A stretch of 64,000 nt of DNA from a phage. The DNA is taken from sequence record PZ171035.1; one strand, given 5' to 3'. Under the pieces are notes generated by a model, which was given only the letters and a program-made list of their open reading frames with translations, searched no databases and was not told the origin of the DNA. Every line of letters starts with the position of its first letter. Positions within the stretch are counted from its first letter, which is position 1. Made by a program: the position numbers and the translations under genes. Shown here piece by piece: positions 3,088 to 64,000 of the stretch.

Positions 3088-3826
3088 CGATGAGTTTAAC
3101 TCAGCTAAGAAAGAAGTAGTAGCTGCTGCATACAAACTAATTCTCGACCGTATGACTGGTCAGAAAAAACTCCATCCTAATGTGATGATTGTCTGTGCTG
3201 GTAACAAAGCTACCGACCGTGCCATTGTTAACCCACTGGGTACTGCAATGCAGTCTCGTGTGATTCACTTCGAGATGGAACTCAACTTCGACATCTTTGT
3301 TGAAGACGTAATGATTCCTCAGCAATGGGATGAACGTCTGGTTGCATTCTTACATGCTAACCCAGGTTATCTGCATGACTTCGACCCAGCCCATAAGAAC
3401 AAAACATTCTGTTGTCCACGTACTTGGGACTTTGTTAACAAAGACCTCAAGAATCAGCCGGAAGGTGCTCTGCCTGATGAAGATTCTATCTACTATGCAG
3501 GTCACGTTACTGCCGGTAAAGCTACAGAATTTGTTCAGTTTACTCAGGTATATAATCGTATCATTACGATTGAGAAGGTAGTCAAAGACCCACTGGGCTG
3601 TGCATTACCGGAAGATAACAACCTGTGCTGGGCTACCGTTAACCATCTGGCTAACAAAACTACTGAAGAGAATTTCGCTGAAGTTCTTCAGTACATTGAA
3701 CGCTTTAAAACGTTCACCCATAAGATTCTGTACTTCCGCACAGTAGGCAAAGCATTACCAGAAATTCAGGCTACACCTGAATGGCGTAAGGCTGCTGCTA
3801 ATGTCTCTCGTTACATTCACGGGTAA
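3088..3826 (+). CDS. AAA+ ATPase, exon 2
   Basis: Frame open from 3086; reads DEFNSAKKEVVAAAYKL...VMIVCAGN (sensor-1-like); the ORF-track start at 3152 is an internal Met. Confidence 0.6.
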
Positions 3827-5009
3827 TCACAAAATGAACCAATTTCCTCAGCACACACTTAGTGATGAACAACTCATGCGTGAGTATGACCGTATTCAGG
3901 CCCAAGCCTTCCTGGGCAAGTCTGCTGCGTTCTTTGGTTCATTACTGTGTAGCCTTAAATTCTCATGGAAACGTGAGGATTGTCCCACTGCATGTACCGA
4001 TGGGATAGAACTCCATTTCAACCCAGATTTCTTTATCTGGATGTGTCCAGATGCAAGAGAAACAGTGTTAATGCACGAATTATGGCATGTGGCATATCTA
4101 CATGACATCCGTCGTGGAAGCCGTGACCCAGAAGTCTGGAACCAGGCATGTGACCACTTCATTAACCTTCAGTTAGAAGAGGATGGTTATAAGTTCACTG
4201 GTATTGATGAAGGCATTTGCAAAGACCCCCAATATAAAGGATGGGTCGAAGAAGACATCTACGATGACCTGATGAAGAACCCTCAGAAAAGGCAGAAGCC
4301 GTCAGGGGGTGCTGGAGCAGGTCTTGCTGGCGACATGAAATCCCCCACTTCGGGGCAGTCCCAGGGTGCTGTTGTCAACAACGTAGTACGTGCAATGCAG
4401 AGCCAGAAGATGGCAGGTGGAACAATGCCCGGTAAAGGTGCTGGTCGTATGGAAGAGGTTATTACCCAATTCCTTAAACCAGTGGTTCCATGGCAGGAAG
4501 TCCTTATGAACTTCTTTACCGACATTGATGACACTCATTATACGTGGGCCAGACCTAACCGTCGTTACACTGACATCTATCTACCTTCTTTAGAAGATGA
4601 TGAAGGGCGTTTACGACACTTAGCCTACTTTGAGGATGTATCTGGTTCCATCAGTAGTGCTGACTCTCTGCGTTTTAACTCAGAGGTTGCCTACGTTAAG
4701 AGCCAGTTTAATCCTAAGAAGATGTCATTAATTACCTTCGACGATATTATCCAAGAAGAGATAGACATCACTGAAGAAGATACTTTTGAGGAGATTAAGA
4801 TTACTGGTCGTGGTGGTACAAACCTGGAACCAGTGCGTGATTGGATTATTAAGAATAAGCCAACCGCTGCAATCATATTCTCCGATATGTATGTTCGTCC
4901 AATGGAAGAATTGCCATTTGATATTCCTATCATCTGGTGTGTTCTGAATAATCCCAATGCTACCGTACCTTTTGGGGAGGTAGTTCATATCCCTAAAGGA
5001 ATGAAATAA
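3801..5009 (+). CDS. vWA-domain protein with metallopeptidase-like HExxH motif
   Basis: 402 aa; HELWH motif in N-terminal half; C-terminal half vWA-like; alternative in-frame start at 3834 just after ATPase stop. Confidence 0.55.
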   Translation: MSLVTFTGNHKMNQFPQHTLSDEQLMREYDRIQAQAFLGKSAAFFGSLLCSLKFSWKREDCPTACTDGIELHFNPDFFIWMCPDARETVLMHELWHVAYLHDIRRGSRDPEVWNQACDHFINLQLEEDGYKFTGIDEGICKDPQYKGWVEEDIYDDLMKNPQKRQKPSGGAGAGLAGDMKSPTSGQSQGAVVNNVVRAMQSQKMAGGTMPGKGAGRMEEVITQFLKPVVPWQEVLMNFFTDIDDTHYTWARPNRRYTDIYLPSLEDDEGRLRHLAYFEDVSGSISSADSLRFNSEVAYVKSQFNPKKMSLITFDDIIQEEIDITEEDTFEEIKITGRGGTNLEPVRDWIIKNKPTAAIIFSDMYVRPMEELPFDIPIIWCVLNNPNATVPFGEVVHIPKGMK

Positions 5010-5515: not shown

Positions 5516-5545
5516 AAGGCTATCCGGCTTAATTAAGGAAACAAC

Positions 5546-5755
5546 ATGTCAGTATTTCAAGTAACTCATGCAACCTCAGATGTACGCTTAACCATTAATG
5601 CTGTAAATGTAATTGCAGTAGAACAGATTCCACAGTCTGACCATGCACGCGTAATATTTGTAGATAAGAACTATATAGAAACCAAAGAAACCTATCGTTC
5701 TGTACGTAATTACCTGAAAAAAGCTCTTGCTCCTGCAAATAAAGATGCTGAGTAA
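5546..5755 (+). CDS. hypothetical protein
   Basis: 69-aa ORF followed by a 12-bp perfect hairpin. Confidence 0.4.
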   Translation: MSVFQVTHATSDVRLTINAVNVIAVEQIPQSDHARVIFVDKNYIETKETYRSVRNYLKKALAPANKDAE

Positions 5756-5766
5756 GTAGCTGCCTA

Positions 5767-5793
5767 AATAGCCCAACATAGTTGGGCTATTTG
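5767..5793 (+). terminator. hairpin, terminator-like
   Basis: AAATAGCCCAAC-ATA-GTTGGGCTATTT perfect 12-bp stem; weak T tract. Confidence 0.4.
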
Positions 5794-5828
5794 TGAAGAA
5801 ACTAACTCAACCTCACATAGGAACCATC

Positions 5829-6071
5829 ATGGAATCTTTAGCAGCAATCCTTGTTATGTTGTTTGTATTAGCGGTATACCTTATCCCTACTATCATTGCT
5901 TTTTCACGAGGCCATGCCTCTAAGTGGGGCATTGGTGTGCTCAATATCGTATTAGGCTGGTCACTAGTATTTTGGGTAGTAGCACTGATTTGGTCACTGT
6001 CCAACAAAGGTCAGAACCAGGTTACGAATGTAACTGTTGTTCAAACCAATGGTGGCAGTAAAGCAGAGTAA
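5829..6071 (+). CDS. superinfection-immunity-like small membrane protein (Imm-family-like)
   Basis: PTIIAFSRGHASKWGIGVLNIVLGWSLVFWVVALIWSL; ORF-track GTG start at 5793 lies inside the upstream hairpin, so ATG 5829 with AGGA RBS is preferred. Confidence 0.45.
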   Translation: MESLAAILVMLFVLAVYLIPTIIAFSRGHASKWGIGVLNIVLGWSLVFWVVALIWSLSNKGQNQVTNVTVVQTNGGSKAE

Positions 6072-27332: not shown

Positions 27333-27408
27333 TACCCGGTAGGCTTAGTGGTAAAGCCCCACTAGTAAACCAACTAGGACGCAGGTTCGAATCCTGTCCG
27401 GGTAGCCA
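27333..27408 (+). tRNA. tRNA (anticodon not resolved)
   Basis: Acceptor TACCCGG/CCGGGTA, D-arm GGCT-TAGTGGTAA-AGCC, T-arm GCAGG-TTCGAAT-CCTGT, discriminator G plus CCA; anticodon arm pairs only with a shifted, non-canonical register. Confidence 0.55.
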
Positions 27409-59314: not shown

Positions 59315-60925
59315 TCACACAATGTATGAACGTAGTGGATTAACACTATCTTCTTCTTCCTCATCCCACATTGGGTCACCCTTGTTATCCACCAAAGTCA
59401 TACCTGCTTGTGGTTTCCAAGGATTGAGATAACCCAGCATGGAGATAGTATCAATACAGTCATCCTTACCTTTAATCCCATTAATGGTAGCTAGTTTAAT
59501 CTGGCCCATGAACAGACCCATAATAGTCGTATCTCTCAACTCTTCTGGGAAGTACATCTTACCAGCTTTGAACCATGGAACTACCAGGTTAAAGCGTGAC
59601 AGTTTAGAGGTTACAGGACGGATGCCTGGCTTACCACCCTCAGAGGATGCAAAGTTAAAGAAGACATTACGGTTAATCATTTCTTTCTGAAGGAGTGAGA
59701 TAAATCCATTTTGTTGTCCTGTAATTTCGACACCAACGTTTTGTGGTTGGTATTCCTGAACCAGACGGAAGAGGTCGTCAAAGTTCTTATCCATAAGCTG
59801 ACGATTAGCCACACCATCAACCCAGAACCAATCTCCATTAGAACTATAAGCCCAAACTGATATGACACTGTAGTCACTGGTCTGTTTCTCCGAAGTAGCA
59901 AAGTCAGTTGTAATATAATAGTTGTAGCAGGACTTCATCCTTAACAGTTGCTGTCTGCTGTACCATTTAATCTCACTATCCTGAACAAGGCGTTCATCTT
60001 CAGAACTAATACGAAGCATAAGTTCCTGGTAGAAGCCAGCCAGCTTACCAGTCTTAACTGCCATGTCATATTGGGCTTTGATGTAGTCGTAGGAGAAACG
60101 GTCATCCCATGCACCCTGAAATTCTTCTCTACTACAGGGGAACTTCTCACATACAGGCCATACGTTTACATCCCATGCACCAGACTCTACTGCTTCAATG
60201 ATAATGTCTTCCTTATTAAAGGGAGTACCATTGAAGATTACTTTACGACGAGTAGGGTCAAGAGCATGGTTCACACCTTTATAAACAGTATCTTTAATAG
60301 CTTCCATGCTAGTCTTAGAGTTAGCATCACCATCACTAATCAAGTCATCCAGTACACAGAGTGTTGGACGTTTACCATATATCTTCGTACCACGAAGACC
60401 TGTCTTAGCACCAAACAACTTAACACCAAGTCGATGTCCTTCTACATTACGGAACTCCAGTAGGTTATCCGTAAAGGTAGCTTCAGGTATCCATTGCTGA
60501 AGGAACTCACTATTCTTGTAACGAAATTCAATGTTCTTACGTGCAGACTTAGCACCGTTATCCATTGAGTCAGATACGTAAATCATTCCTTCTACTTTAC
60601 CCAGGCTAGGTAAGTGACCAAACACTGCCAGAAACAAAGTAAAGTATTCCATGAATACAGCAGTCTTACCTGCACCACGGAAGCACAGGTTAACTACATA
60701 CTGGTTCGGACTAATCATCTTATCCAGCATCTTCAGGTGAACTGGAGGTGTTTTGTTGGATTCACCTTCTTTGCCATTAACCAACTTAATAAAGTTGGCA
60801 AAGGTAAGAGCAAACTGACTAGGAACATAGTTAGATGAATTAAGGTGGGAGTAATCCACCTGGTCCAGCCATTCATCTAGTTCCTGTTTAATTAACTCAG
60901 ACATCTGTAATGTCCTCATCTGCAC
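59315..60925 (-). CDS. terminase large subunit
   Basis: 536 aa; Walker A CFRGAGKT, Walker B LCVLDDL; first large gene of the late operon. Confidence 0.65.
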   Translation of the reverse strand: MQMRTLQMSELIKQELDEWLDQVDYSHLNSSNYVPSQFALTFANFIKLVNGKEGESNKTPPVHLKMLDKMISPNQYVVNLCFRGAGKTAVFMEYFTLFLAVFGHLPSLGKVEGMIYVSDSMDNGAKSARKNIEFRYKNSEFLQQWIPEATFTDNLLEFRNVEGHRLGVKLFGAKTGLRGTKIYGKRPTLCVLDDLISDGDANSKTSMEAIKDTVYKGVNHALDPTRRKVIFNGTPFNKEDIIIEAVESGAWDVNVWPVCEKFPCSREEFQGAWDDRFSYDYIKAQYDMAVKTGKLAGFYQELMLRISSEDERLVQDSEIKWYSRQQLLRMKSCYNYYITTDFATSEKQTSDYSVISVWAYSSNGDWFWVDGVANRQLMDKNFDDLFRLVQEYQPQNVGVEITGQQNGFISLLQKEMINRNVFFNFASSEGGKPGIRPVTSKLSRFNLVVPWFKAGKMYFPEELRDTTIMGLFMGQIKLATINGIKGKDDCIDTISMLGYLNPWKPQAGMTLVDNKGDPMWDEEEEDSVNPLRSYIV

Positions 60926-61586
60926 GAACTAGTTTAGAACCAGCAACCTCTTTGGTAGGTACACCACTATTGATTGCATTGATTTGCTGCTCAGCTAATG
61001 CAGCAAGTGTTGCCTTGAGGTCAGTTAATCCAGAGTTCTCTCTCAAGTCCAGATTGATATTTGTTACCTGGTCTTTCGGTTTAGCTAAGTGAGTAAGGAT
61101 AGAGTTAGCTGCATCACATCTTACTTTCTCACTCGCTGCTGTAGTCATTAGTTCAACCTGAACGTTGATAGCCTTCTGATAATTATCTTGGTTCACAATC
61201 CACACTGGAACCAAACTTTGTTCCATGATGAGGTTAACTAGCTTACCCCTGTGGTAAGCAGATACATAAGCACTAATATCTTTCTCACTGGTTCCTCGTG
61301 CTACGAGTTCTGCTTGTCGGTTGGGGAATGTCTTGAAGTAGGCTTCCTTATTTGAGTAGCCCATGTGCTTGTAAGTCACATACTGAACTGCATTCATGTA
61401 GTCCTGTGTCTTAAACTTACCTTCCTTCATTACACCAGAGTAGGAGATAAAGTTTTCACGGAAGGACTCAGCAACCAGTTGGTCTTGGGTTATGTTGTTA
61501 ATCGTGTCTACCAACTCCTGGGTCACACTGTTTTTGAAGTTAGCAGGTAGTGCATTAATAATCTGCTGCTTAGTTAGTTCACTCAT
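60897..61586 (-). CDS. putative terminase small subunit (by position)
   Basis: 229-aa ORF immediately upstream of, and overlapping, the large terminase gene. Confidence 0.3.
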   Translation of the reverse strand: MSELTKQQIINALPANFKNSVTQELVDTINNITQDQLVAESFRENFISYSGVMKEGKFKTQDYMNAVQYVTYKHMGYSNKEAYFKTFPNRQAELVARGTSEKDISAYVSAYHRGKLVNLIMEQSLVPVWIVNQDNYQKAINVQVELMTTAASEKVRCDAANSILTHLAKPKDQVTNINLDLRENSGLTDLKATLAALAEQQINAINSGVPTKEVAGSKLVRADEDITDV

Positions 61587-61633
61587 ACTTATCTCGCTAC
61601 AAAGTTATGTCTATTAAAGAAGATTCTTTTCTT

Positions 61634-61648
61634 GGGGTGAGTTACCCC
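61634..61648 (+). promoter_or_regulatory. short GC hairpin in divergent intergenic region (candidate hairpin promoter or regulatory element)
   Basis: GGGGT-GAGTT-ACCCC; no U-tract on either strand, so unlikely to be a terminator. Confidence 0.3.
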
Positions 61649-61757
61649 TTGAAGAAACGATACCATACAGTTACACTTTAGTCATGATATAGAAAAAGTT
61701 CATGATACTAAATAGTATGTAATGTTCCGATGACCCTATTCCCAAAAGGAGTAACAT

Positions 61758-62048
61758 TTGAGAATCTATATGAGAGTCCATGACTCTAAAGATGAATACG
61801 CAGAGGTAGACCACACCGAAGCTGGTATTCTTTCAGATGATATTATCATCACACATGATGAAGATACCTATCATGAATTAGCTGGGATGATGCTTTTAGA
61901 GAATCGTCCGGGCATTAACATCCTGGAACCAAGAGAAACTTACTCTTTAGAAAAACGTTTTTCAGCTCTCGTGTTCTTCACAAAATTACCTCATAGTGTC
62001 TCCGTCAGGCGAAGCAAAGACAGTGTTCGGATGACGGTGACGATGTGA
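61758..62048 (+). CDS. small protein, paralog family member A
   Basis: TTG start with AAGGAG RBS; YHELAGMMLLEN...INILEP core motif. Confidence 0.45.
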   Translation: MRIYMRVHDSKDEYAEVDHTEAGILSDDIIITHDEDTYHELAGMMLLENRPGINILEPRETYSLEKRFSALVFFTKLPHSVSVRRSKDSVRMTVTM

Positions 62049-62187
62049 TTAGTCATGCCGCCTAGTAGACAGTGGCGGTACTCGTAAAGAGTTAATAACT
62101 TCTACAGTCAGGGTTGCCCGGCTCCTTTCCTACCTAGTAGGCTAACGATACACATGTATCTAGGGTGATGAACTGGCCCGTGATAGA

Positions 62188-62230
62188 AAACGGTAAGGGG
62201 TAGAGTCGAGAGGCTCTACCCCATTTCTTT
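62188..62230 (+). terminator. rho-independent terminator
   Basis: GGGGTAGAG-TCGAGAGG-CTCTACCCC followed by ATTTCTTTTTT. Confidence 0.55.
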
Positions 62231-62248
62231 TTTAGGAGGTATGCAAAT

Positions 62249-62644
62249 ATGAGCATCTACGCTTTTGATATTGATATTACCGGTGTACTTCGTAAGCAGG
62301 AACCCTACTACCTAGGGGAACCAGAGATGGTAAGTAAGTTCTTATCTAAACATGCAGTCTTCCTACCAGACTGTGAAGAATCCCATGAGATAGTTGGTTC
62401 ATTCTTCTTAAGTAACCTGCAAATCAATACACGTATACTTACTGAACCAGTTGTGTATGACCTTACTGAGTATGCAGACTTCGAAACATTCTTCCCAGGA
62501 GTTAGGTTCTATAAAGTACCTGGCTGGGAAATGATTGTTGAACATAACCTCTTTAATAAAACACTTTCCATTTACTTCAGACCTATCCCTAAAGGAAGGA
62601 AAATCCATCATGAAATTCATACTGACCGCCCCCAGTTTTATTAA
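62249..62644 (+). CDS. small protein, paralog family member B
   Basis: AGGAGG RBS; AVFLPDCEESHEIVGSFFLSN...RILTEP. Confidence 0.5.
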   Translation: MSIYAFDIDITGVLRKQEPYYLGEPEMVSKFLSKHAVFLPDCEESHEIVGSFFLSNLQINTRILTEPVVYDLTEYADFETFFPGVRFYKVPGWEMIVEHNLFNKTLSIYFRPIPKGRKIHHEIHTDRPQFY

Positions 62645-62924
62645 AGGGGAATCCTTATACACAACAGACTTTACTTTAGAAGAAGTCATAGACAGCAACC
62701 CTCAGCATGTAATTCTGGTTCCTACCCTAGAGGACTACCATGAAGTAAGGGGTCAACTCTTCTTAGCAGGTAATGATCGTAAGGTTGTGTGTATCATTCC
62801 TCCTTCTGTCTATACCAATAGTGGTGCGTATGATGCTCTACCTTTTATGTTGGTATCCGAGGACTACCAATGGGATAGTCGCTACGAGAATGAGGAATAC
62901 CGCTACTACTATGTAAGGAAGTAA
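62610..62924 (+). CDS. small protein, paralog family member C
   Basis: ATG 62610 with GGAAGGA RBS; VILVPTLEDYHEVRGQLFLAGN...VVCIIPP. Confidence 0.5.
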   Translation: MKFILTAPSFIKGESLYTTDFTLEEVIDSNPQHVILVPTLEDYHEVRGQLFLAGNDRKVVCIIPPSVYTNSGAYDALPFMLVSEDYQWDSRYENEEYRYYYVRK

Positions 62925-62927
62925 GAT

Positions 62928-63245
62928 ATGCACTTCTATGGTTTGAGCTATCGTAGTACCAACCCCCTTAATCTGGGGGTAGGTAAATCCCATTGGATGA
63001 GAATAAGCACGCCTATGACCATGTACTACGAACAATGTGAAAAAGCGGATGAGTTCATCGGAACCTGTCTATTATTAGGCGTACCTATTACCTTTATTAA
63101 AATAGATACTTCCATTGAAGTTCCAGAGAATGTAGTTGTATACATCTACTCTTCCTGTGAACCTCTGATAGAAACTACCCTTACGGGTAGACTTATTACC
63201 CTCTACCCTTCTACCTCATATTTATCTAGCGACGAGAGTCTCTAA
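62928..63245 (+). CDS. small protein, divergent paralog D
   Basis: AAGGAAG RBS; EFIGTCLLLGVP weakly matches the family core. Confidence 0.4.
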   Translation: MHFYGLSYRSTNPLNLGVGKSHWMRISTPMTMYYEQCEKADEFIGTCLLLGVPITFIKIDTSIEVPENVVVYIYSSCEPLIETTLTGRLITLYPSTSYLSSDESL

Positions 63246-63529
63246 TGGTTATCAGTAAAATTTATCCAGAGCCTAATGAGGAAAATTACATCCTCCATAA
63301 AGAAATAGCTGACCTGAATGCTGATGTACTTATCCTGGTTCCAGATGAACAGTCTCTACATGTGATACAAGGATTACTCTTCCTATACAATAAGAATTCG
63401 GTAGTACATCTACTTGAACCAGAAACACCTATGTCCTGGCAGGGTAGCTTTAGTCCTTGGCATCTTAATACAGACAAGTACATCCTTTCATTCGAGGGTA
63501 ACACTCCCATCTATAAGGAAAGGAACTAA
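63245..63529 (+). CDS. small protein, paralog family member E
   Basis: LILVPDEQSLHVIQGLLFLYN...VVHLLEP. Confidence 0.5.
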   Translation: MVISKIYPEPNEENYILHKEIADLNADVLILVPDEQSLHVIQGLLFLYNKNSVVHLLEPETPMSWQGSFSPWHLNTDKYILSFEGNTPIYKERN

Positions 63530-63532
63530 AAC

Positions 63533-63871
63533 ATGAACGTTAAGCTCTTGGGAATGAGTGGTACTGACTTACTGCATTATTCCTCTGTACCAGAAAAAGC
63601 AATCATCCATATTATGACCTATGGGAGTTCTACACTAATAATGGAACCAGGAGAGTTAGCAGACTTTGCACAGGGGCATAAACTTATTACTAACAGTAAT
63701 GCAGAGATAGTTATCCTGCAAAACGGTGAGTCAGTCTCCATACCATTGGGAGATTATGCTCATGTGTTTATCAAAGATGCTACCGTAAGGAATAGTAGTG
63801 GTAACCCTAACCATCCTGACTATTACTCTGGCATAGCACGTATCATCACCAGAACCTCCCCTCCTATTTAA
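63533..63871 (+). CDS. small protein, possible distant paralog F
   Basis: AAGGAA RBS; 112 aa. Confidence 0.4.
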   Translation: MNVKLLGMSGTDLLHYSSVPEKAIIHIMTYGSSTLIMEPGELADFAQGHKLITNSNAEIVILQNGESVSIPLGDYAHVFIKDATVRNSSGNPNHPDYYSGIARIITRTSPPI

Positions 63872-63940: not shown

Positions 63941-63960
63941 GGTGTGGCTGGGGCTACACC
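63941..63960 (+). promoter_or_regulatory. 8-bp stem hairpin near window end
   Basis: GGTGTGGC-TGGG-GCTACACC (one G-U pair). Confidence 0.3.
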
Positions 63961-64000
63961 CTTACACTCAACCATCCCCCCCGGTATGTTGACGGTGTAG

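Follow-up and report, generated by a model that had tools for sequence, protein, structure and literature searches.

A tandem array of small genes at the right genome end

At the right end of the window, a stretch of 64,000 nt of phage DNA, six consecutive open reading frames occupy the plus strand, in agreement with the preliminary description: gene A (61758..62048, 96 aa), gene B (62249..62644, 131 aa), gene C (62610..62924, 104 aa), gene D (62928..63245, 105 aa), gene E (63245..63529, 94 aa) and gene F (63533..63871, 112 aa). The start codons were refined by means of ribosome-binding sites and orthologues. The TTG at 61758 was accepted as the start of A because of the AAGGAG 6 nt before it and of the resulting N terminus (MRIY), which resembles that of N4 gp70 (MRLF), and the start of C was placed at the ATG at 62610, not at the TTG at 62535, since all orthologues use that ATG. 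With these starts, the first 35 nt of C lie within B, D and E share 1 nt, and 3 nt separate C from D and E from F. In PHROGs the six genes fall into six separate families of unknown function, A in phrog_7213 (4.8e-40), B in phrog_9160 (1.4e-60), C in phrog_11661 (3.8e-63), D in phrog_12099 (3.7e-52), E in phrog_16338 (2e-37) and F in phrog_12606 (6.3e-48). To the left of the array, on the minus strand, lie a gp69-like gene (60897-61586) and the gene for the large terminase (59315-60925).

The region from 61600 to 64000 matches 59 GenBank phages, all of them G7C-like N4-type coliphages and Shigella phages (Gamaleyavirus, Schitoviridae), and because the best matches are 87-91% identical, the window phage is a new variant in a well-sampled genus. 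The alignment of the window with Mimir124 extends to position 72423 of the latter, whose annotated direct terminal repeat begins at 72366; the final ~58 nt of the window (63943..64000) thus align with the beginning of that repeat, and the start of the window's own terminal repeat was placed here by homology. The array stops ~70 nt before it. From this correspondence, the six genes make up the ~2.1 kb of unique sequence nearest the right terminus, and the earlier placement of the array at a genome end holds. The right end is the last to enter the cell, and a first-line role against defences would call for earlier entry.

The preliminary description had also proposed that at least four of the six proteins share a common core, and for A, B, C and E this is borne out. 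In local alignments scored against 2000 shuffles, A and E gave z=10.2, C and E z=9.1, B and C z=5.9 and A and C z=4.2. Profile searches crossed the family borders, A matching phrog_16338, the family of E, at 7.5e-4, C matching it at 2.7e-3, and E matching the family of C, while HHalign comparisons of orthologue profiles gave 91% for C-E, 75% for A-E and 63% for B-C. In an alignment of 30 orthologues the register of the motif is kept and its His and Gly are invariant. The core has the form strand-P(D/T)-x3-5-H-E-h-x-G-x-h-h-L helix, followed by an h-x-h-h-E-P strand, and similarity over it is significant for all four proteins; pairwise alignment, named earlier as a check, therefore did not return the non-significant scores expected of a motif shared by chance. 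A fortuitous likeness among unrelated small ORFs would be in keeping with the low identity between pairs (only 27-30%) and with the failure of D and F in the pairwise tests, but z scores up to 10, the profile cross-matches, the register conserved in 30 orthologues and a predicted fold that may be shared and a locus common across genera leave it a vanishingly small probability. For A, B, C and E, which are, as judged from their sequences, paralogues of one family, the alignment and profile results refute it; for D it may still hold.

Gene F is probably a very divergent member, on marginal support. Its core reads hhMhPGELADxxxGxxLLxNSxAxLxIL-PGE, and no pairwise score was significant (z <=2.3). 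A pooled profile of A, B, C and E compared with the F profile in HHalign gave a probability of 41% (P=2.8e-4), F and the family were mutual best non-self matches among the 590 six-frame ORFs of the window (E 0.25-0.31), and F', a paralogue of F in relatives (35-47% identical), matched the family HMM at E=0.018. A 113-aa protein of IME11, presumed from its length to be F', gave a weak BFVD match to the E model (TM 0.43). As for D, its motif, ExADEFIGTCLLL, lines up by eye only, and no significant profile or sequence similarity to the family was found: HHalign gave P=0.27, D ranked 19th of the 590 window ORFs, and its best pairwise score, against B, was z=2.0. In one phage D is split into two fragments.

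An HMM of A orthologues identified N4 gp70 (1.2e-21), Klebsiella gp86 (3e-13) and Achromobacter JWAlpha gp87 (8e-10), and one of B identified N4 gp71 (5.9e-8) and Klebsiella gp87 (2.5e-9); by these similarities A and B are orthologues of N4 gp70 and gp71, a relationship that the preliminary description had missed. Klebsiella N4-like phages have four members and other lineages one to five detectable ones. JWAlpha, which belongs to another subfamily (Rothmandenesvirinae), carries the A orthologue and at least one further member in the layout of the window, that is, A, a ~200-nt gap with an annotated terminator at its end, and four small genes. An exhaustive profile search of 1.84 billion representative proteins yielded only 19 matches at E <=1e-3, all small. 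The genomic context was looked up for two of them, P0135 and P0126, and both are flanked by a gp69-like gene and gp1/gp2, the junction at which collapsed assemblies fuse the right end of N4 to its left end; a tblastn search of GenBank phages with P0135, the most divergent subtype, gave no match. Family genes were found to run rightward, with the gp69-like gene on one side and gp1 or the terminal repeat on the other. At E <0.1 in BFVD, every organism-named match to the E model was a small protein of an N4-like phage, from Escherichia, Klebsiella KP8 (three), Achromobacter (seven) or Pseudomonas Zuri (three); several further matches at this level are listed without an organism. The family appears, on this distribution, to be an invention specific to the Schitoviridae. 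Linking N4 gp70, gp71 and the G7C-type ORFs into one family is new; the kind of accessory region is familiar.

The family proteins are 92-131 aa long, acidic (pI 4.6-5.9) and moderately hydrophilic, and a Pfam scan of all six array proteins gave no match. An AF2 model of E (pLDDT 83.2, pTM 0.72) has three strands, a helix with the H-E-x-x-G motif, a further strand and a C-terminal hairpin. In BFVD it matched a 104-aa protein of EC1-UPM at TM 0.81, likened to C by length and organism only, a 121-aa protein of OLB145 at TM 0.56, likened on the same two grounds only to N4 gp71, and KP8 proteins at TM 0.55-0.69, whose family placement likewise rests on length and organism only. The invariance, or near invariance, of H39, E40 and G43 (E numbering) in Gamaleyavirus orthologues could suggest that the motif, hhLVP-x3-E-x-H-E-V-x-G, marks a small family of enzymes, for example hydrolases or nucleases using His and Glu. 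In the wider family, though, conservation is confined to a single Gly, which is invariant, and a hydrophobic pattern; Y, A, E or Q can stand in place of the motif His, and the Glu varies. Since only the Gly is invariant and the His is replaced, the motif is better explained as a structural helix-on-sheet element than by catalysis. The modelled motif does sit on a helix packed against the sheet, and with no Pfam match and no enzyme among the fold matches of the E model, an enzymatic family is very unlikely.

The array genes are real and constrained, because orthologue dN/dS is 0.10-0.28. Across Gamaleyavirus loci gp69 is 97-100% identical and A to F are 51-96% identical; relative to Mimir124, dN is 0.047 for A versus 0.007 for gp69 at similar dS (0.20 for A and 0.29 for gp69). 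A, B, C and D are constant among relatives, and E, E', F and F' come and go, E being replaced in other phages by E' (45-50% identical). The selection on the array genes carries no arms-race signature. In the preliminary description the genes had been called fast-evolving, which is right in that content is variable and the dN of A exceeds that of gp69, but overall selection is purifying (dN/dS 0.1-0.3), not diversifying. The comparisons indicate that close relatives differ by duplication, exchange and occasional loss of family members, each copy being under purifying selection, and we read rapid change together with content variation as the mark of accessory genes that face the host.

A structured RNA that ends in the terminator between A and B

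A strong terminator had been noted between A and B. A terminator scan confirmed it, with a hairpin of 11 pairs (62197-62222) followed by ATTTCTTTTT and a U-run at 62224-62233; the whole element (62197..62233, plus strand) abuts the ribosome-binding site of gene B (AGGAGG, 62234-62239). A hairpin and T-run occupy this site in every one of 12 lineages with different stem sequences, and the records of PhAPEC5, PhAPEC7 and JWAlpha carry a terminator annotation here. The element thus combines a G+C-rich hairpin, a U-run directly after it and retention in relatives, as is typical of intrinsic terminators. What the preliminary description missed is that this terminator is the tail, and 3' end, of a conserved structured RNA of ~180 nt (62055..62233, plus strand). 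The 200 nt that separate A from B are better conserved than the flanking genes: identity is 91-99% in 56 of the 59 GenBank matches and 83-90% over the 2.4 kb around them. An alignment with the gp70-gp71 gaps in N4, in Klebsiella phages and in JWAlpha is also possible.

The RNA begins with a hairpin, P1 (62057-62062/62074-62079), whose loop (62065-62069) forms a pseudoknot with 62101-62105; between these lie a second hairpin, P1b (62080-62083/62089-62092), and a linker, TAATAAC (62093-62099). Downstream, P2 (62116-62119/62163-62166) is a long-range helix around one or two hairpins, in the window P3 (62129-62133/62137-62141) and P4 (62147-62151/62156-62160), and a conserved (G)GAC(U/C)UCCUU motif follows its 5' arm (CTCCTT at 62122-62127). 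P5 (62178-62181/62190-62193) precedes the terminator. A covariance model was built on the 5' domain with the pseudoknot left out. In the window it matched only once (62055-62113), and one syntenic copy each was present in 20 of 39 sources, the window included; at E <=0.01, four matches lay outside the seed lineages, in the lineages L069 and L070 (2e-7), L079 (1e-5) and L087 (0.0095). Pairing was kept in 95.4% of cells, versus 76% in shuffles, none of 500 of which reached this value, and 41-57% in slid controls. The pseudoknot, absent from the model, is yet 96.5% paired, with compensatory changes in three of its five pairs: the P1 loop, G-N-N-G-A, pairs with a downstream U-C-N-N-C in six co-varying versions (GTAGA/TCTAC, GGAGA/TCTTC, GGAGT/ACTTC, GTGGA/TCCAC, GCGGA/TCCGC and GCAGA/TCTGC). 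The sequences of P2, P3, P4 and the terminator differ with complementarity kept in 11 of the 12 lineages, P2 occurring as GCCC/GGGT, CCCC/GGGG, CACCCA/TGGGTG, TCGAAC/GUUUGG, CCAT/ATGG, CCATCC/GGATGG, CCGTC/GACGG, TGTC/GACA and CGTC/GACG. The pairs include 21 of the G.U type and none of the A.C type, so the plus strand is the one that folds, as an RNA; its folding energy is -62.3 kcal/mol, versus -51.3 kcal/mol for the minus strand. Compensatory changes beyond those due to relatedness and this G.U strand asymmetry together identify the element as a structured RNA.

No Rfam family matches this RNA even at E=10, the best score being 17.8 bits against a gathering score of 80, and a literature search found no described structured RNA at this locus in the Schitoviridae. 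Among the 40 records listed, none annotates an RNA feature at the site; two have a terminator there, and two others a hypothetical protein and an exonuclease. An exact-pattern scan of IMG/VR for AATAAC-N2-3-CTACAGTCAG gave 40 loci, most of them unrelated or due to chance, and the real matches were only Gamaleyavirus loci, JWAlpha and one relative.

Several known roles were considered and rejected. Stimulation of stop-codon read-through or frameshifting by the pseudoknot does not fit the spacer from the A stop codon, which is ~9 nt in coliphages and ~70 nt in JWAlpha, and read-through of A would add only 12 codons. Hairpin promoters of the vRNAP have 3-nt loops, whereas that of P1 has 11 nt, and the G.U pairs mark the folded strand as RNA-like. 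An antiterminator formed by the pseudoknot strand and the 5' arm of the terminator fits the window and is not kept in the lineage L016 or in JWAlpha.

Probable expression and function of the array

In Enquatrovirinae, JWAlpha-like phages and L079 the U-run lies 6-25 nt from the next start codon, so that B to F can hardly have a promoter of their own after the terminator. They would be made only from transcripts that pass the terminator and, with stops and starts that overlap or lie 3 nt apart, would form one translationally coupled operon. Expression of B to F by read-through as such an operon is most likely; a promoter within the stretch that encodes the RNA is possible and would free these genes from that dependence. 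By analogy with the right-end ORFans of Pseudomonas phage LUZ7, which are transcribed in mid-infection from the same strand as the early and middle genes (PMC9163698), read-through into B to F would occur at mid-infection. The RNA would be the natural place for its control.

How the RNA acts is a more tentative matter. In three distant lineages (L087, L082 and L097) it is present without detectable family genes, the next ORF lying 190-400 nt downstream, and for this reason the RNA may be functional in itself, as an sRNA or a stable 3' UTR. It could accordingly be a free-standing, trans-acting sRNA or the processed 3' UTR of A, with no switch involved and the array served by its own promoter. 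In favour of this, conservation of the RNA extends more widely than the protein family, a terminator always stands at its end, and it is 91-99% identical in 56 of 59 records versus 83-90% for its surroundings; its conserved CUCCUU, which resembles an anti-Shine-Dalgarno sequence, could pair with ribosome-binding sites. The short distance from the U-run to the next start (6-25 nt in Enquatrovirinae, JWAlpha-like phages and L079) leaves no room for a promoter of the array behind the terminator, and we hold this reading to be plausible at somewhat less than even odds. More speculatively, the RNA might represent an undescribed class of riboregulator found across Schitoviridae subfamilies, either an attenuator that responds to a ligand or protein and gates the gp71-type array or an element of dual function that also acts in trans through CUCCUU. 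If so, the array would be a regulated accessory arsenal, not constitutive cargo. If it were to gate the array or serve as an sRNA, the element would add a layer of RNA to the three-polymerase transcription programme of N4.

With regard to the proteins, A, B, C and E, and probably F, descend from one small acidic protein, apparently of alpha/beta type. Since only a Gly and a hydrophobic pattern are conserved and no enzyme fold matches, they most likely act by binding; they may be binders of other macromolecules that modulate host or defence targets without enzymatic activity, the target differing from paralogue to paralogue, as would suit an accessory set for host interaction and not core machinery. 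This is the likeliest function, we infer. In the preliminary interpretation of the array, the tandem paralogous family, its place at the genome end and its rapid evolution stand, while a host-takeover or anti-defence role can only be surmised: no homology or fold likeness to a characterised anti-defence or host-takeover inhibitor was found, the selection is purifying, and a literature search yielded neither a function for N4 gp70 or gp71 nor a phenotype, a binding partner or expression data for any family member.

The main rival to binding modulators places the proteins in the DNA metabolism of the phage itself (for example replication, formation of the terminal repeat or control of packaging), in which case the position of the array would reflect its function. 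The array adjoins gp69 and the large terminase and stops ~70 nt short of the repeat, gene A is kept from E. coli phages to Achromobacter phages, and the authors of the LUZ7 study suggested a replication-related role for its middle-transcribed right-end ORFans (PMC9163698). Core functions are, however, rarely carried by two to five or more interchangeable copies whose members are lost or broken, the array genes evolve 5-10 times faster than their neighbours, and distant Schitoviridae with a conserved gp69 show no detectable members. These points make a role in DNA metabolism rather improbable. The best joint explanation is in our judgement that A to F form a right-end accessory cassette of a G7C-like N4-type phage, encoding binding modulators and expressed from B onwards as a read-through operon, and we put its probability at about 0.5.

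N4-type phages are a classic model and are in therapeutic use, yet their right-end genes are without an assigned role. One amplified, rapidly changing family that takes in gp70, gp71 and the G7C-type ORFs provides a defined set of targets for experiments and explains part of the variation in content between near-identical therapeutic isolates. The structured RNA, with its pseudoknot and terminator found from Escherichia to Achromobacter phages, is a separate and directly testable lead and a more surprising result than the protein array.

Comparison with known systems

The 5' domain of the RNA recalls preQ1-I riboswitches (RF00522) and other leaders with an H-type pseudoknot (PMC11625349), which share with it a hairpin whose loop has 11 nt, an A-rich tail, a pseudoknot between loop and tail, and an intrinsic terminator before the genes. 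In the phage RNA, by contrast, an additional hairpin (P1b) splits the tail, beyond which comes a large multi-helix junction domain, and the downstream genes are unrelated to queuosine; membership of the preQ1-I class was rejected, there being no RF00522 match. In LUZ7, the putative sRNA1-3 of the orf69-orf70 intergenic region are short, terminator-ended non-coding transcripts expressed late (PMC9163698). They resemble the RNA described here in their terminator ends and in belonging to an N4-like phage, but their locus, by gene number, is a different one.

The array itself can be likened by layout to the rightmost 29 small ORFans of the N4-like LUZ7 (gp87-gp115), which run rightward and have no assigned function; that cluster is much larger, and neither paralogy nor an upstream RNA is described there. 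Another Pseudomonas phage, Zuri, has three small proteins with a weak fold match to the E model. A close counterpart is N4, where gp70 and gp71, hypothetical proteins of PHROGs 7213 and 9160, lie between gp69 and the right terminal repeat as in the window, and where the gp70-gp71 gap holds the RNA and terminator as the A-B gap does. N4 has two members only, plus the 42-aa gp72, whereas the window phage has four to six. More broadly, several of the small genes in the 'hyperplastic regions' of T4 and among the early genes of T7 and T5 are host-takeover or anti-defence factors. Like the array, these accessory blocks consist of small, fast-evolving, dispensable-looking genes whose content varies between close relatives. 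They have no homology to the array and are mostly early and situated at the first-entering end; the array, unlike them, lies at the last-entering end and contains one amplified family.

Structured RNA between genes A and B

Between gene A and gene B, the first two members of the small-gene array at the right end of the window, lies a structured RNA of ~180 nt (62055-62233, + strand). This element contains an H-type pseudoknot, a junction of several helices and a CUCCUU motif, and it ends in an intrinsic terminator. Its conservation, backed by covariation, extends across N4-like phages from Escherichia to Achromobacter. A significant match to the RNA was not found in Rfam, and none of the GenBank records listed carries an RNA feature annotation at this site. 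In three distant Schitoviridae lineages (L087, L082 and L097), a common motif, CTCTAAGTTA / CTCAAAGTTA, is found ~20-40 nt past the RNA terminator; this motif may be a promoter of the downstream genes in these lineages.

Elsewhere in the window, a mid-genome tRNA-like gene was reported by ARAGORN at 27333-27408 (+), with the anticodon output 'tRNA-???'.

Conserved block between gp69 and gene A

The intergenic region that separates the divergent gp69-like gene and gene A contains a conserved block, GATTCTTTTCTTGGGGT...ACCCCTTGAAGAAAC (61622-61657), which encloses a hairpin, GGGGT-GAGTT-ACCCC (61634-61648). The block is nearly invariant across Gamaleyavirus, N4 and Klebsiella phages and is followed by conserved promoter elements resembling TTAGAC/TTACAC...TACAAT. 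Candidate roles for the block are a late promoter or a regulator of gene A.

Array variation and database records

Among related arrays, the gene D orthologue of L063 (IMGVR_UViG_3300006879_000003; 5532-5858 in reverse-complement coordinates) is split into two pieces of 52 and 45 aa, and the genes that adjoin it are intact; the split orthologue is apparently a pseudogene. In Klebsiella phage JZBo1 (L011), the adjacent genes gp89 (3652-3843, 63 aa, MTRVEAYKCMLEGKQV...) and gp90 (4008-4193, 61 aa, MTRIEAYTQMLMGEAV...) appear to form a second and unrelated pair of paralogues within the Klebsiella-phage array.

Several database records of array homologues also deserve comment. Two homologues of gene A (P0061 and P0067) are annotated as Enterococcus faecium and lie on a 2.76-Mb contig, an assignment that probably reflects coliphage contamination or misassembly. 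The orthologous array of OY979416.1 ('Klebsiella phage vB_Kpl_K57alpha1.2', 33600-36304) is annotated as DNA primase and exonuclease, which looks like an annotation transfer error. Finally, a protein with 100% identity to gene E (P0082) is encoded on a 73,309-bp Logan contig, so public assemblies derived from sequencing reads probably include the genome of a near-identical phage.
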